Source: an uncultured virus (IMG/VR IMGVR_UViG_3300020049_005154) (taxonomy: Duplodnaviria; Heunggongvirae; Uroviricota; Caudoviricetes). From it: DNA of 64,000 nucleotides. Position numbers and translations under genes: made by a program. Shown one piece after another: positions 1,483 to 54,720 of the stretch; position 1 is the stretch's first letter; every line of letters starts with the position of its first letter. The stretch lies in the IMG/VR virus record IMGVR_UViG_3300020049_005154; one strand, given 5' to 3'. The notes below the pieces were generated by a model. It was given only the letters and a program-made list of their open reading frames with translations, was not told the DNA's origin and ran no database searches.

Positions 1483-2237
1483 CTCCTCAATGTAAGCCGC
1501 TGGCTTGCTATGTTGGTATCCCTCTCAGCCCTACATTAGTTACTCGCCTAGGCGGAAGACTAGACCGCGTAAGTAGTTACTATAGGCAACTGTGCGAAAC
1601 GTACTGCACAGGAAGGAATAAGTATGCCCCTAAAGGCATCAGGCATATAGCATACAACAACATACGTTATTTGAATATGGGGGGTCAAGATTACACTAAT
1701 GAATTCTGGTGCCTGATTGACAGGGTATTGGCTAGTAGCATAGAGCACGTAGGCGGTAGGATACCTAGAGAAGAGAATGATCCTATCATATCCTTCCGTG
1801 GCTGCTCTATGAAGATGATACAATACACAGCAGGATTTGCTGTACCCTCTGTGTTCTTGTATCCTGTAACGCTAATACCTTGGTCGTGGTATACATCTTA
1901 CTTCATAGAATGGTCATGCTTGGAAGAAGCATACAAGGAGCCATGCTTAGACTATTTGAGATTCTGCCCTGATGCTCCTTCATTATACGCGCGAGGAATG
2001 GTAGGCATAGACTTAGCTACATATGCGGCGCACAGATCAGCAGGGCTCACACAAGTAACCAGGTACAGAGGGCTGCTAGACGCTGTGACAGGCAACATAG
2101 GTGAACGAGCACACAAGGTAGAGAAGACAGACTTTAGGAACATACTAGACTTAAGACCCGCAGAAAGGATAGTACATGACTTCAACAGTACCAGAGTTCA
2201 AAATCAATCTCTTTACGGTAGGACCGATCCCTCTTGA
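1365..2237 (+). CDS. Hypothetical protein
   Basis: 290-aa ORF filling the gap between resolvase and recombinase; overlaps both neighbours. Confidence 0.6.
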   Translation: MPRVSKVRLNQRAFGEIIDRGFWVVPCKPTVTPLDYQDIAPQCKPLACYVGIPLSPTLVTRLGGRLDRVSSYYRQLCETYCTGRNKYAPKGIRHIAYNNIRYLNMGGQDYTNEFWCLIDRVLASSIEHVGGRIPREENDPIISFRGCSMKMIQYTAGFAVPSVFLYPVTLIPWSWYTSYFIEWSCLEEAYKEPCLDYLRFCPDAPSLYARGMVGIDLATYAAHRSAGLTQVTRYRGLLDAVTGNIGERAHKVEKTDFRNILDLRPAERIVHDFNSTRVQNQSLYGRTDPS

Positions 2238-3369
2238 TAAGCCTTGGATCGGATATGCTAGAGTATCCACTAAGCGCCAGCATGAGCGTGGTATCTCTAT
2301 TGAAGACCAAGAGCAAGAGATAATCGCCTATTGCACTAAGCTGGGTATCCCTCTAGCTGGTGTGGTTAATGAGATTGCTTCATCTAAGAACATCAATGAA
2401 CGTCCGCAAATGAAGACAGTACTGTATGATATTTCCCAGAATAAGTATGCTGGTGTTATCAGTGTAGATATGAGCCGCCTTACTCGTAACGTCATTGACC
2501 AGCAAGTATTCATTGACCCGATCGGCAAGGCTGCGCGTATCAAGCTTACTAGGCATGAGTACAGAAATGCCAGTAGCGATGACTACCTAGCTAATACATT
2601 CAATGCAGTCATTGACCACAGCCAGAGGCTCAGGACTTCTATCGCTACCAAGAAAGCACTAGAAGCACATAGGCAGCAACGATACTATACACGCACCGGA
2701 TACGGTGTACCCCCGTATGTATACAGGCTAGAGGATTTGCCTAACGGTAAACAAAAGATGCACATTGATGACAAGTACAAGTTTGACTATCTACTAAACA
2801 GATACCTAGCTACTCTTGGGCTCCATATTGACCTGTGCGATGCTCTTACCTTTATGATGTCTGAGAAGGGTATTGGCAATATCACTGGTCGCCGATGTGA
2901 AGGCAGATTCACCTTACATATCGCGCTCTACTTTGAGCTTTTGCCCAAGGAGGAAGAGCATTGGTGCTTCCGGGTACGCAAGTACGATTACCGCCAATGC
3001 TATGACGCATACGACAAGGTAATCGAACAGCTTAAGCTGGATGGCAGGGAGAGTGAAGCTTGGAAGGTGCCGGTTCCAGAAACCAGGAACATTATCATTA
3101 AGCACTCTAAGACTTCAAGAAAAGCAAGGGCTAATTCAGAGGATACACCGTGGAGGAATCAAGTAGTTGCTTGGGATAAGGTCATTGAAGAGTTACCCCA
3201 AGCACTACTTGACGCTTTCATGCCATACTATCTAATCACTAACATCGCTCAATGCGCTAGGAAGTACAAGAAGGCTGCTTCCGAAGCTATAGCATTAAGA
3301 CCTATCTCTGCGAAGTATGCTGCTGCCGGTATGAGTCGAGTATCCGTGCCAAGGAGTCCTCAATCCTAG
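2176..3369 (+). CDS. Serine recombinase (resolvase/invertase catalytic domain plus a long C-terminal region)
   Basis: GYARVST(KRQ) catalytic Ser motif, SIEDQ, ASSKNINERPQM and DMSRLTRN. Confidence 0.9.
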   Translation: MTSTVPEFKINLFTVGPIPLDKPWIGYARVSTKRQHERGISIEDQEQEIIAYCTKLGIPLAGVVNEIASSKNINERPQMKTVLYDISQNKYAGVISVDMSRLTRNVIDQQVFIDPIGKAARIKLTRHEYRNASSDDYLANTFNAVIDHSQRLRTSIATKKALEAHRQQRYYTRTGYGVPPYVYRLEDLPNGKQKMHIDDKYKFDYLLNRYLATLGLHIDLCDALTFMMSEKGIGNITGRRCEGRFTLHIALYFELLPKEEEHWCFRVRKYDYRQCYDAYDKVIEQLKLDGRESEAWKVPVPETRNIIIKHSKTSRKARANSEDTPWRNQVVAWDKVIEELPQALLDAFMPYYLITNIAQCARKYKKAASEAIALRPISAKYAAAGMSRVSVPRSPQS

Positions 3370-33198: not shown

Positions 33199-33273
33199 TG
33201 AGAGGTAGCCAAGAAGTAAGGCGCTGGACTTTGGACCCAGCTATCGTTGGCTCGACTCCAACCCTCTCAGCCA
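33199..33273 (+). tRNA. tRNA-Gln (anticodon TTG), CCA encoded
   Basis: Acceptor TGAGAGG/CCTCTCA+GCCA, anticodon arm CTGGA-CTTTGGA-CCCAG, T arm GTTGG-CTCGACT-CCAAC. Confidence 0.9.
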
Positions 33274-37919: not shown

Positions 37920-39021
37920 AGCATCTTCTTTCGTGTCTTGTCGATTAGTCGTTGAATCCTATCTCTCTCAGCCGTTAGTTGCTCAATCCTACCTGCAAAC
38001 ACTTCTTCCTCTGTCCTGAAGTACCGCATATGAAACTCATTAGCGTATACGTTAACAGTGTAATCAGGGCGATCATCCCTGAGTACGATGGTATCATATC
38101 GTTCAGAGGGGTATATCTTCACCACCTGGACTACTTCACTCCTCCTAACAATGCAGTTCCTATCAAGACCAAACCAGATACTACCCACATCAGGCAGTAC
38201 TGGCTTAGTCCCATACTTGTCTTCATCGCTTGGTTCCATCTCTGTATCCTTTGGGTATTGCATCTCGTATAGCTTAGCATACCTATCTGCAAAGTATTTA
38301 GCTATCGTACTATCTGTTTTAATCTTTTGTTCTGGACTCATCATCTTCTTCATCCTTAATGAGTTCCATCTGTTCCTTAGCCTTCATCTTCTCTATCTTC
38401 TTCAATTCATCTACCTTCCTTAATCTATGTCGTCCTAGGTTCTTGTTCTTAGGCGGTACAGCATCCATCTTACGTCGTTCCATAACTCACCCCTTAGCAA
38501 TGAGTCTGTACCCTACGTACAGAATAATCATCAGCACTACAGCATGTACGTACCAGTCGAAGTACTTGAATACGTAATCTACCATCTTACCCTTCATTAT
38601 CTCCTTAAACCTTGCTACAGTCATCGTTAGCTCCTTCTGTGGTAAACCCAGTAATACCTAATGCTCTCATTACTTCCGGGCTATTAGATTTACCCGCATT
38701 AAAGAACTCTAACCTACCATTAACTATCTTGATATACAGAGATACCTCACTATCCGCGAAGTCTATAGCTACAACATCTCTGTCTGGCTGAAGTCTATTG
38801 ATATGTTCAACAGACTTACCGATGAATGCTTTAATCGTCATGCCTTCCATCTTCATATCCTCTAGGTAGCTTCAACTCACCTTCCCGATCACCCTCTCAC
38901 ACCTACCCACCACAGGGCAAGGGGAATCGTAAGCCCTCATCCCACTGATTTCATTGCACTTACGAAAATAATCCATACCATTCTACCCTGAAGGTCAGCA
39001 ATACAAGAGCCACGCCGCCCA

Positions 39022-39454
39022 GTAAAAGCTAAAACCGGACCCTGGAGGGGGGTAAATCCACTCCATCTTTAATAGGAAGCCACTACTAGCATACCTTTTA
39101 CCTGTATCCACCGCATAAACCATATCAAATTACCTATATTCTCGTTACACCTGTATGAAAATCACCCCGTAAAAGCTAAAAGTGGACTCCCAAGAGGGGG
39201 TAAACCCCTTAAAATTCCATGCGGATACCCATTTTCATGTAATAGTATAGCATTTAAGTGCATTTTCAGCTAAACTCATGGAATTTTAAGGGGTTTGGAG
39301 TAACAGTGAAGGGGAGCCCCTAGGGAAATCCACTCCCATATCCTGTTACTGGGTGCTAATAGAGAGGTTTAAGGGGTATTGGGTACGTACAGAGTTGATT
39401 CGTTACGTAGTATTGCATAATCCGTTACGTAGAGAGTTGATCCGTTACGTAGTA
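39022..39454. repeat. Direct and inverted repeat cluster
   Basis: GTAAAAGCTAAAA...GAGGGGG(G)TAAA twice (39022, 39169); perfect 20-bp inverted repeat 39202-21/39277-96; CGTTACGTAG three times in 39391-39454. Confidence 0.85.
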
Positions 39455-39697
39455 ACATACACTGGCCTACTAAAAAATTTTGGAAAAATTTGCTATACTC
39501 GCAATAAAGACCGGAGGTTACAATATAGGGTCAACTAGCTTGCGCCGGAAACCCAAAGGGCAAAGGGAGCGTGCAAATGAACCGTGGTGGGGTGCCTAAT
39601 CTAATCACCACTAGAGATAATGGTGAAACCTAATTAGGATAGCTGGAGCGGTTTTGCTTATCTTATATATGCTAACACGTTTGGTATTATACAAATA

Positions 39698-39726
39698 ACC
39701 ATACAAATTGAGCACTATAATGTCAA
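39698..39726 (-). promoter_or_regulatory. Strong sigma70-like leftward promoter
   Basis: TTGACA-17 bp-TATGGT in an AT-rich context. Confidence 0.7.
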
Positions 39727-39782
39727 GCAATTTACCTTGATGCACAGAAAATGTGCAGTGCACAAAAACAGTGCAGTCATGG

Positions 39783-39907
39783 TGTGCGGATTTCCGCACA
39801 ATCCCAACCCTTCCCTTTTTGTGTAAGGATTTACCTAATTCCATGCGGATTTCCGCACAGTGTAATCACTTACCCAAATTGCACACCTTGTGTGCGGAAA
39901 TCCGCAC
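39783..39907. promoter_or_regulatory. Three palindromic operator-like sites TGTGCGGAWWTCCGCACA
   Basis: Copies at 39783-39800, 39844-39859 and 39891-39907 (third copy inverted). Confidence 0.75.
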
Positions 39908-40537
39908 TAACTCCTGGCGCGTGGTTCCCGCTCCCTTGATCGTCTCCCCCTCTTGCAGCCTGTCCCGAGTCCATCCCTAGTCGCTCGCATCAACTCCCCG
40001 GATGCGAAACTAGCCTTTCCCTGTGCCCTCCCTTGCCCGTTCTCCCCTCTAGTGCTGTCACTCATGCCTTGCGCATCGAAACGCCTAGGAATCGCCTAGA
40101 ATCACGTTTCCCGCTTGTGCCCTATCTTTTCTTGCTTGATGCATCAATTTACTTTATGGATGCTTGACGCTATTAGGGTTAAGGCATGACGATTCCCCTT
40201 GCCCTTTGAAGGCATTAGGTGTCCTATCCCCGCAAGCATAGCGTATGATCAAAGTAAAGTATCGCTAGGCTACGGTTTAGGTTCCAGACTTCGACCGTTG
40301 CTCTTTGACATTTAGCCTTTCGCGCTTCGCCCGCCGCACGGATGCACGCGGCACGGGCGGATTGGGGACTCTTTAGACCCCTTGCGATTGGTGACGATAG
40401 CTTTACAGGTCAACCCTTGGACTTGATGCCTTGACGGTCAATCAAGGTATGAAGTCTTAGGGTTGACCTAAGAGACTAGTTAAGTGTGAGAACGCTTGAC
40501 AGTCATTCTCCCGCTTATAGCGGAAAGGACTAGTATC

Positions 40538-41254
40538 ATGACAAACGCAACGGTTAACTCCAATAACGTCGTTGCTCAGGTTGAAGCGATGGAGCGTTCG
40601 GTTAATCCCGCCCGCACCATTGGTTCCCTTACTGGACGTGTCAACGCTACGGGGCTTGGCTTCAAGGCTGATTCCCGCATCGGAGACTCGGCAGTGTTCG
40701 GAGCGTTGGACTCGGCACGCGAACGCTATGCGATGGAATTCCGTTCCATTCATGGTGCGGACGTTCCCGACGAAATCATCGCCTCGAATTGGGCAATGGC
40801 GGTTCGGGATAAGAGCAACAAGGCATTCTACCCTGTTGCTCAGGCTAGAGCCGTCGATGAAGCTATCGCGGCCAAGGCTGTCAATGCATCGGATGATCCC
40901 AATACCCCTACTGGAAAGGTTAGCGTTTTCAATCGCTTGAATAAGGCGATTAAGACGCTCTTTCTGAAGGTGACGATTCAGGTCAACGGGAAGGATAAGC
41001 GGGTTACGGTTTCGCCCGCTGAATGGCTTCCACCGAATCACGCGAACGCTCTTCGCCCCCACTTCACGGCGATGAACCTTTCGATGGGTTCTGTCAATGC
41101 CCCTTCCGATATCGCGAAGGGGATGGACTTCGCGGAAGCGTTCTTGCTCGAATTCGACTCCCGTAGCAAGGAAATCCGCGAATGCGCAACGGCATTCAAG
41201 GAAACGGCTGAGGAGAAGGGGTATCTCCCCCTTGAAGGTTTCAACGCTGAATAA
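40538..41254 (+). CDS. First rightward (early) hypothetical protein
   Basis: SD GAAAGGA before MTNATV; strongly biased codons. Confidence 0.75.
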   Translation: MTNATVNSNNVVAQVEAMERSVNPARTIGSLTGRVNATGLGFKADSRIGDSAVFGALDSARERYAMEFRSIHGADVPDEIIASNWAMAVRDKSNKAFYPVAQARAVDEAIAAKAVNASDDPNTPTGKVSVFNRLNKAIKTLFLKVTIQVNGKDKRVTVSPAEWLPPNHANALRPHFTAMNLSMGSVNAPSDIAKGMDFAEAFLLEFDSRSKEIRECATAFKETAEEKGYLPLEGFNAE

Positions 41255-41367
41255 TCTAACGGGGTATGGGCTAGGGGAGTTTTCCCCTTGCCTTACGTTG
41301 GACCTGCAAGGCCGAAGCCGGACGCTTTCGCAAAGCAGTGCAATCCTACGAAAAGGAGTGCCTTCCA

Positions 41368-41720: not shown

Positions 41721-41940
41721 CTCAACCCCAGAGAGGTGAGCCATGGACCAGAATCAAACGGAATTGGAGGAAACGGCTGAGGAGAAGGGGTATCTCCCCC
41801 TTGAAGGTTTCAACGCTGAATAATCTAACGGGCGGGAGCGCTAGTTTAGGTTCCCGCTTGTTCTAGTGCTCCCTTATAGGGGTTGCTAGAACGGGACACG
41901 TTTTCCCCGTTAAGTCCAAGGATAAAGAAAGGAGTCCCCG

Positions 41941-42756
41941 ATGGGACATTATTTGCACGTTAACCTTTCTTCGCATTTCCCCTCAAGTCCTTACGAAAGA
42001 CAATTCATTCGCAACGTGATTAGCAATTCACGCTCGGAAGAGAACAAGCGCGCCGATAGGTTATTCGGCCTTGCTTGTTCTTACTTGTCGATTGATGGGG
42101 AATTGATGGGACTCTCCCTTATTCGGGGCGGAATTAGCGCCCTGATTGGGGGAGTTGTCGTTAATAGGACAGTCACTAGCGCGAAAGGGGGAATTTGCTT
42201 TAGGCTTCCCTTGAACGCTAGGATTGGACCTAGCAATGGGGTTTCTACTCCTCTTGACCATTCGCCCCTTTATGGAGCGTGCAAGCCTTCCCCTAGACAT
42301 TCAAAGCGGGAAGAGTTAGCGCGCTTCAATAACCGGGTATGGGCTAGGGGAGTTTTCCCGTTGCCTTACGTTGGACCTGCAAGGCCGATGCCGGACGCTT
42401 ATCGGGGGAACGTGATTGATAGGACTCCCGTCAAGCCTCGCGCATCGGCTAGCCCACTTTCAATGCCGATTAGGTTTCCCGGTTTAACCCTAGCGGGAGG
42501 CACCATCATTGAAGGAGAGGCTTGGATTCAACACAACAAAGGCGTTGACAGACTCCCTTATGTCCCTACTCCCGAGGAACAAGCGGAGTTTGATAAGAGG
42601 GAGTTTCACAAGCCTGAAAAGGCCAATGGACCTAAGTTTGGTCCGGGCGGTAAAGGTTCCCAACATTCAACGTGGTTGTGGCGATGCGAAGAAAAGAAGA
42701 GAGCACACAAAGCGGCTTACCGTGCGAAGCGTAAGATTGCACGCCAAGCCAAGTAA
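41941..42756 (+). CDS. Early hypothetical protein with a basic C-terminus
   Basis: SD AAAGGAG; followed by a terminator. Confidence 0.7.
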   Translation: MGHYLHVNLSSHFPSSPYERQFIRNVISNSRSEENKRADRLFGLACSYLSIDGELMGLSLIRGGISALIGGVVVNRTVTSAKGGICFRLPLNARIGPSNGVSTPLDHSPLYGACKPSPRHSKREELARFNNRVWARGVFPLPYVGPARPMPDAYRGNVIDRTPVKPRASASPLSMPIRFPGLTLAGGTIIEGEAWIQHNKGVDRLPYVPTPEEQAEFDKREFHKPEKANGPKFGPGGKGSQHSTWLWRCEEKKRAHKAAYRAKRKIARQAK

Positions 42757-42759
42757 GCT

Positions 42760-42803
42760 AACCCCAATTGGTCCCTTAACCGGGATTGATTGGGGTTTTT
42801 TTT
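42760..42803 (+). terminator. Intrinsic terminator
   Basis: AACCCCAATTGGTCCC-TTAACC-GGGATTGATTGGGGTT followed by a T8 run. Confidence 0.85.
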
Positions 42804-43235
42804 GTCCTATTTGGAGCCTGGAAATTGGCTTCAATTGAGACTGTTTACAGGTATAGTGCTTGTATTGCTATGCCCTAGAGTAGTCTCAAAACCCTGGAGC
42901 AATCCACAAGGAGAAGAGAAGATGAATTTCGATCAGCGCCGTGCCCTCTCTACGCTCAGGACCGACTTCCCCAAAGGGGTTAATTTCGCCATCCTCCGCA
43001 TGATGCTCAATCCCTCTTACCGGGAGGCTAATACGCATGACCCTAACTTTCAGCACCCTGGAATTGTGGCACTGGCGGAAGTGTGCCTCCCGTATCAGGC
43101 AGTGGAGCACCCCAGCGGCAACTTCACGGTGAAGTTTGAACAGACGGATAGAGTGCTCAGGGAGTGCAAGAAGCATGTCAGAGTCAATAACATTTACGGT
43201 GAGGAGATGTAATATCCTCGCCAAGTAATCAATCT

Positions 43236-43277
43236 TAGCCCCTCATGCTAGTATAGGTGAGGGGCTATTTTTGTTTC
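43236..43277 (+). terminator. Intrinsic terminator with GCTAGTATAG loop
   Basis: TAGCCCCTCAT/GTGAGGGGCTA followed by TTTTTGTTT. Confidence 0.8.
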
Positions 43278-44478
43278 TAGTAGAGAAGTAAAAACCCACA
43301 AGGAGAAGGATCATGCGGGTCAAAACGGTATTTACCGTAGGTAGAAGCCATACTCATTTTGTACTAGATAATGGCGTAGAATACCAAGTGTATTATGTCT
43401 GCCAAAAGGGTGGTGAAGAGCTTAAAGTAGCAAAAATAATGCAAGATTACCCTGGTCTGAGTATCTTGCCAGACATGGACCCAGAAAAGGAGATTATACT
43501 AAATCTTTACCTTGCTCTGCATACGGCAAATACCGGACTAAGTACTCTAGGCTAGGTTTCAACCAATCCACAAGGAGAATGACCGTGAGCAAGAGGGCAA
43601 TCAACCTTTGCGACACCGTTGTTGCTGTCGTCATCCTAGTTTTCTTGCTGCTAGTGCCCGGTAGCATTGTTGTGCTGCACTGTTTCTAATAGAGAAGTAA
43701 AATCCACAAGGAGAAGAGAAGATGAAGACTGAATTCTTCTTGGATGAAATACTGCGCATTGACCCTTGGGGTTATGCTGTATGCTACACCCACCACGAGA
43801 AAACCGGCGTAGAGAACCATATGTGTAGGTTTAATTACATATGCAAGAAGGGGCAGTTCGAGATAGTTAGAGGGATTTGGTGCAATAATAGAAGAGATTT
43901 TCTTTTGTTGTTGTCGTGGTGGACACATTCCGGCTGGCAGTACTACCCTAGCTAACAAGGAGAAAGGCAGTGAAGACGCCAATAGTTAAGCTTCGTTTTC
44001 CTGTTGTATTGGGGCCATTTCGTACCCTTTTCACCGAAGCGACAATACATAAGGGGTACTACGGCCCTGGATGGCATATCCAAATAATGAACTCCACAGA
44101 ATACGGCCCTCGCGGGTATGTAACTAGGTTTGCTTCGCGTATTGAGAAGCCTAACCGTCGCCCTAAGCTGTGGAATGGGCTGGTTCCTGTAGGGTGGGCT
44201 CGCAAACGCGACGCGCTCACTGTACTATTGGCGCTTGGCACTGTAGTTGATTACGTTTGAAACAAAGTTTCAACCCACCCCACAAGGAGAAGGATCATGC
44301 ACGGAATTAGTACTGAAGTAAAGTACGTAGGAGAGGATGATTGGGGCCGCAAGCTATACAGAACAGAACATGGCAATACCCTAGTCGATGTGGATGGAAT
44401 GCTGTATACACGTACACCAGACTATGATGAGCCATGTTCGCCTACTGGTATCAAAACCCCAACAGAGTAAGTTTCAGA

Positions 44479-44700
44479 CAACCATCCTAGCGTTGCTCTC
44501 GCATCCCGCAATGGGATAACGCAACGATCAGTATGCCTAAAAGCCTCTAAGGGTAAGGCTACTAGGATGGTTGCAAATAGGACAAGGAGAAGGGTTCCCG
44601 CCTTACCCTTCGCAATTCCTCTAGCGGCTCTTCTCCTTGTCCTAATCTTCTACACAGTGTTGTAATATGCCCTCTAAATGAGGGTGTATTAGAGCACTGT
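44479..44700 (+). ncRNA. Putative three-domain structured RNA with an 11-nt inter-domain pairing
   Basis: Stems 44479-90/44562-73, 44578-92/44630-44 and 44663-74/44680-91; 44549-59 is complementary to 44600-10. Confidence 0.65.
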
Positions 44701-47700
44701 TGCTCTGCATTCCAACGAGGAGAAGTAAGATGCCAAAGAAGCTACCTGCTGGGTTTAACGCCAAAGACCAGCTAAACAACTTCTCAGCTACAGTAGAGAT
44801 GATGTACGACAACATTAGAAGCATAGAGCAGTTGATTGCTTCTTGCGATAATGAAAGAGCAAAGAAACACAGGTTTCTTACGCGAGAAGAGAAGCTTAAG
44901 TTTATGCGCGAAGCATTTGGTACAGCTATCACAAGAATCAACTCTCGCCCCGAGGAGAAGTAGGATGGATAACCTAACGATCACTCCAGAAGTAGATAGG
45001 CCCAATGAAGCTAGCTTCGATAACCTAGAGCTAGCTTTTGAAGCCATCTTCGCTTTTGAATTTAAACTTGAACCCATTTGCAGTTGTGGTAAACAAGGCT
45101 ATAATTGCCTTGTACATCCTCGCGAGGAGAAGTAAGATGAATGATAGGCTAACGACAATAGAGACCTCTAATCTGAGCTACATTAGAGGGCTGCTGAGAG
45201 CAATTGAGCACGAGAAAGAAGCACTAAAAGAAGAAGAGATTGCGTGTACGCAAGAATGGGAGAAGTACCATCCAAATGACAGACTGAAACTTAGCTGTAT
45301 TAATCTAAGTAAACGCATATCGGATGTAGATAGACGGTGGCATAATCTAAACGAAGCTAGAGAGTATGCGATTAGCTATATGGAAAACCCTGACGGCAGT
45401 AAGATGTTTCAAGACCTTATCGACAAGGAAAATCTCTAACAACCTGCAAGCTAGCCCTTTCCTTAACTGGATAAGGGCCTTCTTGTGCGCTGTTAAATCC
45501 AATGAGGAGTAACTGAGATGACAGAAGTGTTAACCATTCTATGCACGGGTAGGCATGTGCGGCTGTATAAGGACAGCAATAACAACTTGGTGCTATCTAG
45601 GACCAAGAACTATCCCCGCATATTTCATGGGGATGACAATGAGGAAACCAGGGTGCGGGAAGTCTTAGCTGATTTGCTAGCGATTCCCGTACTTGAATGG
45701 GTCTATCCCGAGGAGATTGGGGCACTGACATGTGGAGAAATCTTCCTCTACTTGCCAACTAATGAGATGTTCTGGCATCGTTCGTACGAAGTACAGTGTA
45801 TTTCAGAAGAGCTAGGACTAGGCAATGACGTTGTGCTAGTCAATGCCGACAACTGCTAAAGGAGAAGTAAGATGAACTACAAGCAAATGGTAGAGAAGTA
45901 CAAGAAAGAACTGTATCAAGTGGAGCAAGTTATCTACAATAAGGAGAATAATACTCCTGAGCTAGATAAATGCAATATGGCGTACCATCGCGATTTGTGT
46001 GCGCTCTACCGGGAGAGGTGCAATCTACTGGTGCTTATCTGCGCATTTTCCCACATTAATCTAGATTCAGCAAAGGAGAAGTAAGATGTATCAAGTAACC
46101 GGCGGCGGTAGAAAAGGATGTCTAATCCCTAGGAAGTTTAGGAGCTATGTTAGGGCTGCCGACTTTGCAATAAGTCAAGCTAGGAAGCACAACTATAACG
46201 TACAACTATGGGAGAGGCTGCTTCCTAAGACCATTTTGCATAAGGAAGTATGGTTCGTTACTAGGTCTTGGGAGTGGGATATATGTACAGGACTATTGCT
46301 GTACAGTGCGGTAATAGTAGATGGGGTAGAGAAGCTTAAGAAGTCAAGACAAGAGGCAGCAGATAGGCATAAGGCTCTGCTGAAGACTATTATAAGGAGG
46401 CGGTAACATGGGCAGATACATCCAAGGTCCAAACACAGGTAAGGCTGAGCACATCATCAGGACACACAAGGCAGAGCATCTTAAGTTTCCGCCACCCGAT
46501 TTCAGTCATATCCCTGAAGGTAGGGCATTGATTGTGGTGTGCGAGAATGGCCTGTTTGATGCTGCGGCATACTGCTATGACGAGGTTGAATTCAAGGCTT
46601 TCGTTAGACCCGATGGCAGGTATAAGAGCTATCTGCTAATCGACAAGGCACTAGCAGAACAACTCACAAAGGATCAGTGATATGTCTCCACAAGTTGGCC
46701 AATTGATGATTTACGAATCGCGATTTGGGCGCGACTGCGATGCGCTTGTGCGCGTAAAGTCTGAGCATCCAAAGGAATTTAGCTCCGGTAATTTCTATGT
46801 TGTTGAAAATCTTGGAGAAAATATGGCTACATTCTCAGTAGAAGCATATGAACTTATTGACCCTGTAGAGTATTTAGCTAAGATGGCAGTCATTACGGCC
46901 CGTTGGGCATCATGGAAAGAAATTCTAGAAAAGGATCAGTGATATGTATTCACCTGCTGCCATAATTAATACTCTTCCGCCACCGCCAGTAGTAGTTATC
47001 ATGTATTGGTGTGGATTAATCTACCTAGTGAAAGCGAGTTAACATGGACAACGAGACTGAGTGTGAGAAGTGTAAAGGATCGTATGTGATATTCGTTCAG
47101 CGTGTGGGTAGGCTAAGCTTCGACCCAGAAATATGCCCATGCGCACTCTCACTATCATCGTACCAAATTGCTGAAGAGCTAAAGCAGAGAGGAGATGCGC
47201 TAGAAGCATATCCGGCTTTGCTGAAAGCTTGCGAAGATTTTGTATCAAAGGTAAAGGACTACCAAGACGGTAAAATCAATCTTCGGCTAGACGACTTCTG
47301 CTTTAGAGCTAAAGAAGCTATCCGAAAGGCTAGGAGAGTCAAATGAGAATCATCGTAAGCAAGGTTAAAGGCCCGAAGAAGATTCCTAAGTTGCGTACAT
47401 TCTACGCAATTGTAAATGCGGGTACAGGTGTATGCTTAGACCAAGATGGGTGGACGCTGCACTGGACTCTGAAAGAAGCTAAGGAGCACCTGAAGACTGC
47501 TCGGGATAACTATGCTGCTGAAAAGATGGTCTGTCTATACAACATTTTCCGACTTACCGCAGTCAAGTCCACACTCATCAAGGAGTACCAAGATGAATGA
47601 GCTAGGAGAGTAGCATGTACTTCGATAGGTTCGACATTTGCGAAGCGTATTACCTCTATGCTTGTGAGTGGCATAAAGGTCAATGGTCCGCTGAATACAG

Positions 47701-48415
47701 GATATTTGGCAGGTTGAACAACATGGGCTTCAAGCCTAGTCCTGTACTTAGCAAGAAATCGCTATCAGAGAACGGCAGAAGCATCTTAGCCAACCTAATT
47801 CGTAGGACACGACGCGGTGAAGTAGTAGTGAAAGGCCGTTGAAGTAAGAAGCACACTCTCAGAAAGGATTAGCACAATGGCTAATCAGAACACAACACGG
47901 CTTCGCAAGGCAGAGCAGCAGAGGGCAGGCGCAAGTCGTCGCGGGGACGAAACCCAGGCGAGCGCCCATCAGGGCAGCGTTGACCGCCAGAAGCGGGCAC
48001 GGGGGCTGATGCTGGCCTTCCACAACGGGCTCCCGCATGGCGTGGATCGCTCCAGTGCAGGTAATGAGTTCCGTCGCGACTTTCAGCCACTTAGCTGCAC
48101 CAATCTCCCGAATAGGTGACTAACATGAAGAAGGCACGTAAGCGGTACTCATGGGGCCGTAAGATGCGTAGGGATAACACGTATGTTAAGGGGCGAAAAG
48201 ATATTGGTGCCATTACAGGTCAAGTATGGGCAGAAATTAAGTACGGATTTCCTACTGTCCGCGCAACAAAGCCAGCTAGTAAGTAACACTTTGGGCATCT
48301 AGGTTCCTACCTCTCTCCCGATATTCCGTGCGTATTGAAAGCCTAGAAGCACGGCGGCTACGGTATCCGATAGACTACTTAGATGAAGATATGTTAAGTA
48401 GTCAGCCGTAACTAT

Positions 48416-48487
48416 AGGCGCGTAGCTTAAAAGTAAAGCATACGTCTTATACACGGATAGATGGTGGTGCAACTCCACCCGCGCCTA
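48416..48487 (+). tRNA. tRNA-Ile (anticodon TAT), CCA not encoded
   Basis: Acceptor AGGCGCG/CGCGCCT, D arm GCTT/AAGC, anticodon arm TACGT-CTTATAC-ACGGA, T arm GGTGG-TGCAACT-CCACC. Confidence 0.75.
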
Positions 48488-48511
48488 AATCACTTTAACT
48501 GCTAAGTCTGC

Positions 48512-48590
48512 GCCGGAGTAGCCCAACTGGCAGAATGGCAATGTGCTTAAAACACATGAGTTGCGGGTTCGAGTCCCGCTTCCGGCACCA
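48512..48590 (+). tRNA. tRNA-Leu (anticodon TAA) with a short variable loop, CCA encoded
   Basis: Acceptor GCCGGAG/TTCCGGC+ACCA, anticodon arm ATGTG-CTTAAAA-CACAT, T arm GCGGG-TTCGAGT-CCCGC. Confidence 0.9.
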
Positions 48591-51558
48591 CCCAAACACT
48601 TTAGCAGTAAAGCAGTACCATCCCACCAGTAGGAGCAGTACAATGAGTAGTTACAACGGGCTTAAGGTAATGGAAATAGGGTATGCTAGTGCTAAGACTA
48701 GCATTCTTGCCTTTCAGACGATGGGAAAGAAATGGAGTAATCGGCCTGTAGTATGGGACCGCAACGGCAAGGTAGGAATTGTTAGCCTAGCTCCAGTTAA
48801 GGGGAAGTGAGATGAAGAGCCAACGCCAGCTATACCTAGATTTGATTGATGAAACTGTAGCATACTACTACGATGCAGACCTTAGACCTATTCCTAGGCG
48901 CAGGTCTTTTGATGAGACTAAGAATGAGTGTATGTACAAACATGGTGATAGGCGGTGTGCTGCTTCCAGACTATTGCCGGATGTTGGTTGGGTTGAGGGA
49001 TATAGTTGTGACTCTTCCGGTAATATAAAGCTAGCCGAGAAAGCATTAGCTAGCAGAGGCATTTATACAATAGACGAAAACAAGGTTGGCATAGCGCACC
49101 TCCTTAGACTCATTCAAATAATCCACGATGTGCCTGAAGAGGTAGAAGAGAATATCAGAACAGCTAAATTGCACGCTAACTATCTGTCAGACGAGGTGGC
49201 TGAAGATGCTAGTAAGATTACTTAACGACATTCAAATTCTAGGTATGGGCCACCCTGAAGCATTCGGTACTAAGGGTAAGGCATACCAAGCAACAGAAGC
49301 TAACAACCTTCCGCAAGGAGGATACTTCTTGTGCCTAGAGCCAAGGGGTGATTGGTGCCATGTGGATAAGGAAGATGGGGAAGTAGTTATTCCAGCTAGC
49401 TTTAATCTACATTGTCCAATGTGTAATATGAAGTATACTGAATTCCTGCCTACAATGCGCAACAATAGGGGAATGGGGCCGGGCTGGTGTGAAAGAGTTA
49501 TAGCCTTTGAACAGATACATAGTAAGTGTGGAACTATTGACGATTTTAGGCTAGACTTACCTAGAGGCAGGGGAAAGGCAGCAGAATGACTATTATAATC
49601 CCAACACACTTGCATGTTTCAGGCAGAGATGCTCTACTGTTTGAAGCATACACTGAAGAGATTAAAGGATGGGTGCGGGAAGCAGCAGAGAGTATTGGTA
49701 TCCAGCCTAGTTCTCTAGAGATCGCCTACCGCAAGCGCCCAGGTATGTGCGATGTACTCAGAATAGAAGCAGAATTACCTGAGTGTGTGCTTGTACAGCT
49801 ACAGAGTATCGTTACTGCCCGCAGAGATAGGCAGACTAGGGCAATGGAAGTATTCACCCTAGACAACTCACCGCATGAGGTGGTCGCAGAATGAAAGACA
49901 CAACCATTGAAGAGTTGGAGAGGGAAGGCTATGAGGGCTCAGATGTGTCACTAGACATTGCCCTATTTGAGTACGGCCTTATATGGCTTAATACCAAAGA
50001 GGGTAAGACTATATTCATCTATGCTCTGCCGCATACAAAAGAAGAGCAGGCGCATACCTATTACGATAGGGCAGAGTTTGACACAAATACCGATGTATAT
50101 CATGAATGGAATTGGGCTGAGTGGGATAACCTGTTTATTTATGCAGGTATCACTAAGGCTCAGTACGATAAGTTAGAATTTCACGATAAGGTGTATCTTC
50201 TGCATAGCTTCTACGGTTCTGAGGAAATCTTTGGCAGCACCTATTGGCATGGTGCTAAGATTCCAGACCCAGATAATCCCTATCCAGAGGAGAACGAAGA
50301 TGAATGAGCTACAGGAAGAGCGACAACAATGCTATCGTAAGCCGCCTAAGCGTCAAGATGTATTGAATTTCCTTGAACGACTAAGGGGAGTAGTTGATCT
50401 AGATACAACGTATGAGAATAGCGAAGTAGTGGAGGAGTGCTATACTATGCGCTGGACAGAGCAAACTACTGGCAATAGGGTGAAGCTAACCACCTTCGGA
50501 TGGCTGTACTTGAAGGATCAACTACTCAGAGAGGTAGAATTCTATGCCAATCAATAAGTGGGCAATCGAATTGTGGGTTGAAGCATTGCGATCTGGTGCT
50601 TTCTATAGCATTGAAGAAGTTAAAGCAGAAGCGCAGAGACTAGCCGACAAGGAGAAGGAAGATGTTTGACGAAGCAAGAACAGTGTATGACGGTGATAGG
50701 CGTAAGCGGCAGATTACAAACATGACTATCACAGAGCGTAGACTTGAACGTATCCGTAGAATGGAAGTACGACACGCAATTGGTCAAGCTATCTATGCAG
50801 GACTTAAGAAGTGCTGGCACTATAAGTCTATCACTGAAAGGGTCAAGCCATTCATTAAGGAAGAAGTAGAGAAGGTGCTGAAGCCCGAGATGAATCCTAT
50901 TGTGTATATTCACGGCGACGATATACACGTATGGTGCAATCAGGAAGAAGCTTGCGAGTATGGCAATCCAGTACGCGTACCCTACCGAACCAATTACTCA
51001 CTTAGCCCTGATGCGTCACTTACTTGGCAAGAGTATGTTGATAAGTATAAGTATTCATGGGACTACACAGATCGTATTGCTAGAGAGAAGAAGTTGATGG
51101 AGAACGACAGTAAGCTTAGCCGACTATCGAATGATGTAGGTAACATCCAATCAGACGCTAAGCTTAGAGTAGCCAAGTGGCTAAGTATTAGCCCAGATAA
51201 AGTAGATACTTATGAAATGCAGTGTGATTATCCTCTGCTGTTTGGCGCACCACGCAACCCTAGAAAGTACGGAGCACTATGATGAGTCACATCAAGCTAG
51301 AGTCAGGCAGGTTCGGATGGGATTATTACATCATACAGTGTGACGCTGATGGTAATGAACGATATAAGTATAACGAAAAGACAGGTGTAGATGAGAGAGT
51401 AGATATACTAATTCAAACGGATACAGATTATCCTAGTATTGCATCTATGTTTGGGTGGGATGGAGAGGAGTCAGATATTGCAGAGGCGCAAGAGTATCTA
51501 GATGACAATGATGGAATGATTGTTGAAGACCCAGGATATTTCGACACGGAGAATTAAG

Positions 51559-53547: not shown

Positions 53548-54720
53548 ATGGGTACTAACCTGATGGACGCACATAGGCAGTGGGCAGAGCGGGCTGATGA
53601 TGAGCGATTTGAAACGCTTGAAGAATTGATCCAAGCAACTACTTACCATAGGCAGTGCGCTGTTGAAACCCCTAAGTTTAATCTACAGAGTGTGCTGTTT
53701 GAACACTCTGATACAGGGGAAGAAGTGGAGATTGTTTCTCCTACTGGTAATCGCGGACAGTTTACGCACTATGCTTTCGACCAGATGGCAAGGCGCGTTG
53801 GTGCTCCACCTAACTATCTACGTAAGCTGGATGCCAGGGTTGCGGCTGTGTGCCTTAACAACGGCATTCGTAATCTTGATGAGGATAGTTCTACTGCTAA
53901 CCTACTGTGGCATAGGAATGGTGGACTGAAGCTAAGGGCTGCATTGTCTGATACCTATTCGCGCATCCATAATAATACTGTAGCTGAGGCTGTCAGGGAT
54001 AGGTTCTCAGGTAATGGCTGGCGTGTTCCACCTGCCCGCCCAGCTACCGCTAATGCTACAAGGCAGCGTAAGGCTACGGCTGCGGATGTAATTCTACAGG
54101 AGGAAATTGGTGGTGCTATTATCCGGGAAGGTGACATCATTAGTCCCGCTGGATTGTTTGCCTCAGACCATGACTTGTTTATCCTGATGGTTAACCCAGA
54201 ACACAGGATTCAAGATGGCTCTGAGTATGGGCTTATGCCTGGATTCTTTGTGGAGAACTCAGAAGTAGGTGCTGCTGCACTATCTGTTACTACATTCTAT
54301 CTGCGTAGCGTTTGCGGAAATTTAATAATCTGGAATGCTGAAGATGTTAAGCGGCATAGGGTGGTGCATCGAGGCAGCAACGACATCAATAAGTTCTATG
54401 CACATCAGGACGCTATCAATAACTTCATTGGCGTACAGGCATCTACTGTGGAGAGCAGGATTAACAAGCTATCTACCGTTGAGATTGGCAAGACTGCATC
54501 TGAAATTGCAGGTATCCTGCCTATCAAGGTTCGAGGATTGTCTTCTAGCCTAGTCAGTGAAGCTTACATCGAATGCGAAAGGACGGAGAACTGTAATCCG
54601 CGTAGCCCTTATGGTATTGCTCAGGGTTTGACAAGGCTTTCTCAGAACACGGGATACATGGATAATCGCGTAGGTGCTGATGTTCTTGCAGGTAAAGTTC
54701 TTGAAGCATACGACTTCTAA
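53548..54720 (+). CDS. DUF932-family protein
   Basis: QWAER.DDERF, THYAFDQMA...GAP..YLR.L, LRAALSD.Y.RI, FASDHDLF and NSEVG...VCGN..IW. Confidence 0.85.
   Translation: MGTNLMDAHRQWAERADDERFETLEELIQATTYHRQCAVETPKFNLQSVLFEHSDTGEEVEIVSPTGNRGQFTHYAFDQMARRVGAPPNYLRKLDARVAAVCLNNGIRNLDEDSSTANLLWHRNGGLKLRAALSDTYSRIHNNTVAEAVRDRFSGNGWRVPPARPATANATRQRKATAADVILQEEIGGAIIREGDIISPAGLFASDHDLFILMVNPEHRIQDGSEYGLMPGFFVENSEVGAAALSVTTFYLRSVCGNLIIWNAEDVKRHRVVHRGSNDINKFYAHQDAINNFIGVQASTVESRINKLSTVEIGKTASEIAGILPIKVRGLSSSLVSEAYIECERTENCNPRSPYGIAQGLTRLSQNTGYMDNRVGADVLAGKVLEAYDF

Follow-up and report, generated by a model that had tools for sequence, protein, structure and literature searches.

In the window analysed here, the 64,000 nucleotides (nt) of the uncultured virus record IMGVR_UViG_3300020049_005154 (Caudoviricetes), a 259-nt gap at 44471-44729 separates a 57-amino-acid (aa) gene (44297-44470) from a 77-aa gene (44730-44963) in a rightward early region that is otherwise tightly packed. 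Based on its modelled fold, this gap very probably specifies a structured RNA read from the + strand, and it is probably a heavily self-paired stretch of the rightward early mRNA and not a free antisense RNA. The reading that we rank first, with a probability of roughly 0.4, is that the gap is a cis-acting, translation-locked gene for a small membrane peptide with an mRNA layout like that of type I toxins. It is placed first because its Shine-Dalgarno (SD) sequestration, anti-SD hairpins and expected processing match the features of type I toxin mRNAs.

In the model suggested by the sequence features, predicted energies and open reading frame (ORF) statistics, a canonical early translation leader would be split in two and each half would pair with an antisense copy just downstream, giving the helices P1 and P2, while a third pairing of 11 base pairs (bp) would connect the SD-like AAGGGUAAGG with CCUUACCCUU in the P2 loop. 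Together, P1, P2 and the 11-bp helix would bury the SD-like site and the AUG of a 32-codon ORF (ORF32), and the full-length polycistronic RNA, if it is made, would not yield the peptide. As a putative unlocking trigger, an endonuclease would take away either the P1 5' arm or the 5' half of the domain that P1 closes (domain 1) and so expose the AUG for translation of a presumably toxic or membrane-active peptide. If the P2 5' arm were lost or occupied, the 3' arm would seize the SD of the next gene at 44730.

The gap RNA is predicted to fold into three tandem domains

The + strand RNA had a predicted folding energy of -106.6 kcal/mol, compared with -68.7 +/- 4.8 kcal/mol for 200 dinucleotide shuffles (z -7.9), none of which folded as well, and the interval 44461-44700 ranked first among 1063 sliding 240-nt segments from both strands after GC correction. 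The fold of the - strand reached -101.1 kcal/mol (z -6.1). G-U pairs account for 7 of the 81 predicted pairs and would turn into A-C mismatches on the - strand, which speaks for an RNA in the orientation of the early genes (+ strand). When the gap was shuffled 1500 times by mononucleotides, perfect helices of at least 11 bp came up in 8 shuffles and helices of at least 12 bp in a single one; the real gap has three, of 15, 12 and 11 bp.

All pairings described in the original prediction were present in the sequence, and its coordinates were correct for the element as a whole. Domain 1 (44479-44573) had been described as a 12-bp stem around two hairpins, and we found this stem, P1, to be formed by the 5' arm CAACCATCCTAG (44479-44490) and 44562-44573, the latter holding the AUG of ORF32. 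It encloses both hairpins, one at 44491-44526 that is stacked on P1 (44491-44496/44521-44526 and 44503-44507/44513-44517), and a weak one at 44535-44559 that has G-U pairs. The perfect 15-bp stem of domain 2 (44578-44644) was likewise found at 44578-44592/44630-44644, and this helix, P2, extends to 17 bp through G44593-U44629 and G44594-C44628, with a predicted energy of -28.6 kcal/mol. Its 5' arm is the SD half of a leader, ACAAGGAGAAGG, and its 3' arm the corresponding anti-leader or anti-SD sequence, CTTCTCCTTGT. The hairpin of domain 3 (P3; 44654-44700), also anticipated, consists of 8 and 12 bp (44654-44661/44693-44700 and 44663-44674/44680-44691), making a hairpin of about 21 bp with three G-U pairs that carries the ORF32 stop codon in its 5' arm and is followed by no U-tract.

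The loop of P2 (44595-44627) comprises 33 pyrimidine-rich nt and contains the 11-mer GCCTTACCCTT (44600-44610), which is exactly complementary to AAGGGTAAGGC (44549-44559) in domain 1, as had been stated. The 5' partner of this long-range pairing includes the SD-like UAAGG at 44554-44558; the 3' partner is anti-SD-like, lies in codons 12-15 of ORF32 and is unpaired with a predicted probability of 0.81. In energetic terms the pairing is marginal, with -18.2 kcal/mol for the duplex against about +10.2 kcal/mol for freeing both partners, plus a pseudoknot penalty of uncertain size.

The fold matched no known Rfam family, those of C4, phage pRNA, ribozymes and riboswitches included: Rfam 15 returned only 3 tRNAs over the whole window at the gathering threshold, and 44200-44900 gave just four chance matches to microRNA and small nucleolar RNA families at E<=10, scoring 16-22 bits against gathering scores of 60-90. 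Judged by these comparisons, the element appears to be uncatalogued. It is single-copy in the window, where only leader words of up to 13 nt recur. Several candidate identities were tried and discarded. A repeated mobile hairpin, such as a miniature inverted-repeat transposable element, a repetitive extragenic palindrome or a Correia-like element, was rejected, as the element has a single copy in the window; for a tRNA- or tmRNA-like element, ARAGORN gave three tRNAs only, all elsewhere; no reverse transcriptase lies nearby that would suggest a retron RNA; and P1, P2 and P3 all lack a following U run, and none appeared in the terminator scan, which excludes an intrinsic terminator.

A leader copy appears to be split between P1 and P2

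Most early genes of the window bear one of a few near-identical translation leaders (families D1, D3 and D14). The gap lies at the exact switch point of leader type, with ACAAGGAGAAG leaders in the upstream block and GAGGAGAAGTAAGATG leaders in the downstream block (families D3 and D1). The upstream 57-aa gene carries the canonical leader CCCACAAGGAGAAGGATCATG, and its stop codon lies 9 nt before P1. The leader word AAGGAGAAG occurs 13 times compared with 0.72 expected (0 of 100 shuffles), and its complement is found on the + strand once, namely here. Along the + strand of 40500-64000, CTTCTCC occurs once and CTCCTT twice against 29 occurrences of AAGGAG; the anti-leader is therefore no common word in this region.

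The original prediction held that the P2 5' arm is the repeated leader without a start codon, and indeed the 20 nt that follow this leader copy contain no ATG, GTG or TTG. It also held that the 3' arm is antisense to early leaders, and here we can specify that the complementarity extends over 13 nt in two genes, 12 nt in one, 11 nt in two and 9 nt in ten. The split of the leader and the presence of ORF32 had not been part of that account. The 5' end of the gap (TAA GTTTCAGACAACCATCC) aligns with the first half of the leader at 43553-43570 and 44264-44281: the segment GTTTCAGACAACCATCC (44471-44487, + strand), which overlaps the P1 5' arm, matches the post-stop GTTTCAACC..ATCC found in the leaders at 43556 and 44267. 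The two halves, GTTTCA..ACCATCC and ACAAGGAGAAGG, the second of which is the P2 5' arm, are separated by about 94 nt (44488-44581), and deletion of this interval in silico brings back ATCC + ACAAGGAGAA, the arrangement seen in the leaders at 42901, 43566 and 43701. Each leader half has its antisense directly downstream, in the 3' arm of P1 and P2, respectively. This order, with the anti-5'-half preceding the anti-SD, fits two cis hairpins and would give no continuous duplex with a target leader.

The leader copy within P2 is deeply buried. Its opening was calculated to require 18.0-22.9 kcal/mol, and the probability of its being unpaired was 0.00-0.01. Among the 37 GGAGAA sites compared, it was the costliest to open (22.9 kcal/mol), compared with 1.3-11.9 kcal/mol for the 19 sites that are linked to a start codon.

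A small hydrophobic reading frame coincides with the helices

ORF32 (44567-44665, + strand) would encode a peptide with a basic N-terminus containing four Arg residues, followed by an uncharged hydrophobic stretch of 22 residues that reaches the C-terminus. Its AUG lies in the P1 3' arm and its stop codon (44663-44665) in the P3 5' arm. The SD-like UAAGG is located 8 nt upstream of the ATG, inside the 11-nt element, and the partner of this element, CCUUACCCUU, is an anti-SD within ORF32 itself. The start position that the leader copy would predict (44597) is in frame with ORF32, which has a chance probability of 1 in 3. With a hydropathy of 2.54 (Kyte-Doolittle, 19-residue window), ORF32 ranked fourth among the 298 short ATG ORFs of the analysed stretch. 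As a small ORF (<60 aa) with one predicted membrane helix, it has the size and hydrophobicity by which type I toxins are recognised; its sequence matched no described toxin family.

In shuffles that kept all helices and the base composition, an ATG ORF of at least 25 aa and equal hydrophobicity arose in 1 of 5000 trials. Holding the P2 arms constant gave an equally hydrophobic ORF in 105 of 20000 trials when ATG was required and in 245 of 20000 when any start was allowed; when P2 was fixed and the loops were shuffled locally, these counts were 85 and 162 of 20000. In the structure-preserving shuffles with P2 fixed, an ORF like ORF32 thus had a frequency of 0.4-1.2%.

In the full RNA, the ORF32 AUG was unpaired with a probability of only 0.00-0.01, and opening of the P1 3' arm was calculated to cost 17.1 kcal/mol. 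The predicted probability rose to 0.34 without the P1 5' arm and to 0.56 without the 5' half of domain 1. Sequestration of the SD and start codon by the mRNA fold, a further mark of type I toxins, is predicted here, in silico only. For the next gene, whose SD GAGGAGAAG and AUG occupy 44717-44732 (+ strand), the SD was unpaired with a probability of 0.44 as long as P2 stood. When the P2 5' arm was removed, the 3' arm paired with this SD and the value fell from 0.44 to 0.05; P2 would thus also have an anti-SD/anti-anti-SD logic for the next gene. As the default state of P2 is very strongly ON (-28.6 kcal/mol), an active trigger would be needed for the switch to capture of this SD.

A second small hydrophobic ORF, of 36 aa, was observed at 43579-43689 (+ strand) behind a leader of the same canonical type. 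It has a hydropathy of 3.14, ranking first of 298, and appears unlocked, with a leader opening energy of 6.3 kcal/mol; the protein collection does not list it among the called genes. We count this ORF of the same operon as a precedent for a locked membrane-peptide gene in the gap.

The element appears to be an internal part of the early mRNA

No sigma-70-like promoter or intrinsic terminator was detected on either strand of 43679-45076, although the host promoter type may differ, and no site matching an extended -10 pattern was present in 44300-44900. Clear intrinsic terminators were observed elsewhere in the early region, one at 42760-42805 (16-bp stem + T8) and one at 43227-43276 (GCCCCTCA...TGAGGGGC + T5), and given their position the genes around the gap would be reached only via read-through or re-initiation. 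Since no promoter or terminator was found for the element itself, and since it has a locked arm and no U-tracts, it is most simply explained as an internal part of a polycistronic early mRNA.

Arguments against a locked peptide gene

Several observations weigh against the locked membrane-peptide gene. The shuffle statistics for ORF32 were computed after the ORF had been noticed. Its codon-usage score of 0.076 is only mildly coding-like and is reached by 15% of 138 wrong-frame ORFs; the score resembles that of the neighbouring 36-aa hydrophobic ORF and of one accepted small gene. The character of the peptide is partly forced by the hairpin, in which a purine arm reads as Arg codons and a pyrimidine arm as Leu codons in one of the three frames. 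The ORF is not among the called genes of the protein collection, the peptide matched none of the families in Pfam, NCBIfam and PADLOC at E<=10 and none of 1.84 billion protein representatives, and a protein atlas returned chance-level scores only (0.80); at a length of 32 residues, a missing family or homologue says little. The case is built on a single sequence, for which no homologue of the RNA, of ORF32 or of the flanking genes was retrieved and which therefore offers neither covariation nor evidence of selection on ORF32. The scan of 43679-45076 revealed no antisense antitoxin, promoter or terminator on the - strand. Moreover, P3 and the 17-bp P2 represent more structure than a lock strictly requires.

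Alternative explanations

A possible, if somewhat unlikely, alternative is a non-coding processing or stability module of the polycistronic early mRNA, in which the helices would be cut by an RNase III-type enzyme or hold up exonucleases and so part the ACAAGGAGAAG and GAGGAGAAGTAAGATG leader blocks, with ORF32 being incidental. About two turns of near-perfect double-stranded RNA, as expected of RNase III substrates, are indeed present in all three helices: P1 (12 bp on the 6-bp helix of the coaxial hairpin, 18 bp together), P2 (17 bp) and P3 (8+12, 21 bp). The position at the exact change between leader families D3 and D1 and the failure to find a dedicated promoter or terminator point in the same direction, and a cis SD:anti-SD duplex is documented as an RNase III substrate in icaR mRNA (PMC3868564). 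Such a module leaves unexplained why P1 and the 11-nt element fall on the AUG and the SD-like site of a hydrophobic ORF, why that ORF arises in only 0.4-1.2% of structure-preserving shuffles, and why the 11-bp long-range complementarity exists. A variant in which the leader copy acts as a STAB-SD 5' stabiliser fails: a start-less SD is present, but it is double-stranded, inaccessible (18.0 kcal/mol to open) and situated on the upstream side of the hairpin, and it would stay on the upstream cleavage product.

We consider it unlikely that the gap is evolutionary debris of little or no present function, that is, the insertion-disrupted leader of a small hydrophobic-peptide gene with inverted repeats produced by template switching (quasi-palindromes). 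The leader does look precisely split, with removal of 44488-44581 restoring it, no start codon stands at the canonical position, all long helices are perfect, as young repeats would be, and the gap has no detectable relatives. Yet four separate long complementarities in addition to P3 within 259 nt are many for an accident, the G-U pairs in P3 and P2 speak against simple recent DNA copying of those helices, ORF32 is still open and has its ATG, and the early regions of this phage are otherwise tightly packed.

The original prediction interpreted the element as a conformationally gated RNA that represses or decoys the whole set of leader genes. Its structural part, a structured RNA carrying the antisense of the leaders, stood up to our analysis, whereas the proposed free regulator of the leader set did not: nothing supports it, the anti-leader being unpaired with a probability of 0.01 and costing 18.4 kcal/mol to open. 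The gate itself fared no better, as the 11-bp pairing engages the P2 loop and leaves the P2 stem closed. The antisense motifs of c4 RNAs are displayed in loops, where they are free to pair with ribosome-binding sites (RBS), but the anti-leader of the gap is bound in a stem. For all 37 GGAGAA sites, we computed a net energy of trans pairing as the sum of duplex formation, target opening and RNA opening, and it was unfavourable, at +0.8 to +18.0 kcal/mol, for each of the 19 followed by a start codon. An exact 13-nt copy of CTAAGGGTAAGGC, hence complementary to the 11-mer of the P2 loop, was seen at 49270-49282 (+ strand) in the gene 49206-49589 and is at chance level (blast E 0.2), as is a 15/17 complement at 42802-42818, which was rejected.

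In its most favourable form, a gated riboregulator or decoy would have opened or cut hairpins free GGAUGGUUG and CUUCUCCUUGU to pair with the early leaders and shut off the gene set, or, as a variant, the buried leader copy would titrate a leader-binding factor. The element does carry the antisense of both leader halves, the anti-leader word is rare on the + strand of 40500-64000, the best leaders would form duplexes of -22 to -23 kcal/mol with it, and the nearest precedent, the c4 RNA of P1, shows that a phage RNA can act on targets from the operon in which it is made (PMC8198154). Against this stand the stem-bound and costly anti-leader, the positive net energies at all start-linked RBS-like sites, the 17-bp cis partner that always wins over an 11-13-bp trans target, the loop pairing that leaves P2 shut, the order of the anti-leader pieces, which does not suit an uninterrupted duplex on a target leader, the failure to find separate transcription signals and the lack of a match to c4 or any other Rfam family. 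In an open-access literature search we found no matching case of a phage RNA antisense to a conserved early leader, which is no proof that none is in print. A gated anti-leader or decoy RNA would become conceivable if a nuclease released the arms; overall, it strikes us as quite unlikely.

More specific, and in our view decidedly improbable, is a self-caged global shut-off RNA, in which the split leader copy would keep both anti-leader halves inert until a timed nuclease cut (e.g. by RNase III in P2 or P1) allowed them to silence, or mark for cleavage, all ACAAGGAGAAG-leader genes; this RNA-based early-to-middle switch could at the same time be a membrane-peptide mRNA. Finally, it is highly improbable that the gap is a DNA-level element whose interleaved palindromes bind proteins or form an origin, a recombination site or a cruciform: the - strand folds well too, three helices are perfect DNA palindromes and unrelated genomes carry the same 11-mer arms in ordinary hairpins, but owing to its G-U pairs the + strand RNA has the more stable fold, by 5.5 kcal/mol, iterons and repeated half-sites are lacking, the phage has its operator-like palindromes elsewhere (39784-39907) and of a different look, and the element is single-copy in the window.

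If the locked membrane-peptide gene is real, a temperate phage would silence a toxin-like membrane peptide in its early operon through its own translation leader, without a visible antitoxin RNA. This would extend type-I-toxin-style mRNA locking to an operon-internal, antitoxin-less form and provide a compact natural case of SD/anti-SD double locking. The shut-off alternative, if true, would represent an RNA switch over a whole class of early genes. Either way, the gap offers a clean, strongly folded and apparently uncatalogued RNA from a phage lineage almost without known relatives, with the evidence coming from a single sequence.

Searches for relatives

Blastn searches of phages and plasmids with 801 nt and 7.9 kb of the region gave no match. 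In exact-pattern scans of viral contigs, P2, the 11-mer pair and the P3 top were each found at zero loci. A scan of genome contigs for the 11-mer pair returned 12 loci, in a Bacillus, a Leptolyngbya, an Atopobiaceae metagenome-assembled genome (MAG) and archaeal MAGs, all of which were unrelated palindromes with dissimilar flanks. At the protein level, the queries were the 271-aa protein, the helicase, the 641-aa and 77-aa proteins and an alignment of the 701-aa protein; in viral, metagenome and genome collections they led to no confirmed relative, and the 77-aa downstream protein found only itself in 5.8 billion clusters. For the 701-aa protein two relatives with 55-56% identity were recovered (P0007 and P0008, on contigs of 72.7 and 49.4 kb), and the exact proteins of the window, among them the 57-aa protein of 44297-44470, are recorded on six JGI/IMG contigs, of which the longest has 76,193 bp.

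Genomic setting

The window is a phage-like contig with very few known relatives. The - strand of 1-39000 holds long structural-type ORFs, including a 2192-aa protein with an LPD38 domain and a glycosyltransferase, and a serine recombinase gene lies at 2176-3369 (+ strand). The region 39000-40500 is non-coding and rich in repeats, and from about 40540 onward small, tightly packed genes run rightward on the + strand. Within the divergent non-coding region, the palindrome TGTGCGGAAATCCGCACA occurs three times at 39784-39907; these copies look operator-like and are consistent with a temperate phage genetic switch. Further repeats are a pair of 29 nt (39384-39454) and two inverted repeats, one perfect over 20 bp (39202-39296) and one of 28 bp (40407-40469) directly ahead of the first early gene.

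A 140-nt stretch at 41188-41327, comprising the 3' end of a gene and downstream sequence, is duplicated with 96% identity. The second copy (41757-41832 and 42330-42400) is interrupted by a 497-bp insert at 41833-42329 with the flanks TAACGGG / TAACCGG, and the 271-aa ORF at 41941-42756 begins within this insert. The interval 42001-42360 is the second most structured + strand stretch of the window and has no Rfam match.

Three phage tRNA genes were located at 33199-33273, 48415-48488 and 48512-48590 (Gln-TTG, Ile-TAT and Leu-TAA), all of which read A-ending codons. The 206-aa protein at 50662-51282 (+ strand) resembles the Cas10/Cmr2 second palm domain weakly and below threshold (E 8e-4; 19.9 bits where the cut-off is 27) and may be a cyclase or polymerase palm protein. 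In the whole window, CTAG (497 occurrences) and AGCT (480) are in about twofold excess over the 248 expected, and GGATCC and CTGCAG are both missing although 13.9 of each would be expected. A HIP1-rich cyanobacterial signature was rejected with a count of zero for GCGATCGC. The 390-aa DUF932/phrog_1362 protein at 53548-54720 (+ strand) has relatives of only 26-33% identity in phage databases, namely in Mesorhizobium, Microcystis, Erythrobacter and Synechococcus phages and in Bacteriophage sp. from human faecal samples; these similarities are the sole hints on lineage or host.

Comparison with known systems

Like translational riboswitches and ermC-type attenuators, the gap RNA would follow a three-part logic, with the P2 5' arm as anti-anti-SD, the P2 3' arm as anti-SD and the SD of gene 44730 as the third part. 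Unlike in these regulators, a recognisable aptamer or stalling leader is absent here.

RNase III sites occur between early genes of T7 and SP82. Similar to these T7-type and SP82/SPO1-type hairpins, the helices of the gap are intergenic hairpins of about two turns in a polycistronic early mRNA. In STAB-SD (PMC7509114; PMC3997798), an SD-like purine tract without a start codon can act as a 5' stabiliser, and the gap shares such a start-less SD-like purine tract (PMC7509114). It differs from both the phage hairpins and STAB-SD by its three tandem hairpins and cross-domain pairing, and from STAB-SD by a tract that is double-stranded and on the wrong side of the hairpin for protecting downstream RNA.

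For the c4 antisense RNA of P1/P7, PMC8198154 describes an operon shared with the complementary sequences and repeated complementary elements that include the RBS. In line with c4 (Rfam RF01695) and the P4 CI RNA, the gap would specify a phage RNA that shares an operon with sequences complementary to it. It departs from c4 in that the Rfam model is not matched and the anti-leader is buried in a 17-bp stem.

In Staphylococcus aureus, cis pairing of an anti-SD motif with the SD between the 3' and 5' untranslated regions of icaR mRNA blocks initiation and creates an RNase III substrate (PMC3868564). The gap RNA would likewise pair an anti-SD motif with an SD in cis on the same mRNA. Unlike in icaR, the long duplex of the gap holds the SD of a leader copy without a start and not that of a gene, the pairing is local (33-nt loop) instead of end to end, and a second SD-like:anti-SD pairing, of 11 bp, serves a small ORF.

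Type I modules are known on prophages, examples being yonT/SR6 on SPbeta, and bsrG/SR4 of Bacillus subtilis. As in the mRNAs of these modules and of aapA1/IsoA1 of Helicobacter pylori, the peptide specified by the gap would have about 30 aa and one hydrophobic helix, the SD and start would be paired intramolecularly with an anti-SD inside or beyond the ORF, and the module would be carried on a temperate mobile element. In most type I toxin mRNAs, as set out in PMC5416894, the SD is sequestered in a stable duplex, metastable anti-SD hairpins act during transcription and processing brings about activation, and AapA1 is a 30-aa peptide on a 250-nt mRNA that requires processing for translation. 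A very stable RNA of about 250 nt, for which processing would be expected for activation, is what the gap shares with the mRNAs described in that source. The differences from type I toxins are that no antisense antitoxin RNA, own promoter or own terminator was found here, that the predicted peptide resembles no toxin family in sequence, that ORF32 sits in the same orientation within a polycistronic early operon, and that its putative lock is made from a split copy of the operon's own leader.

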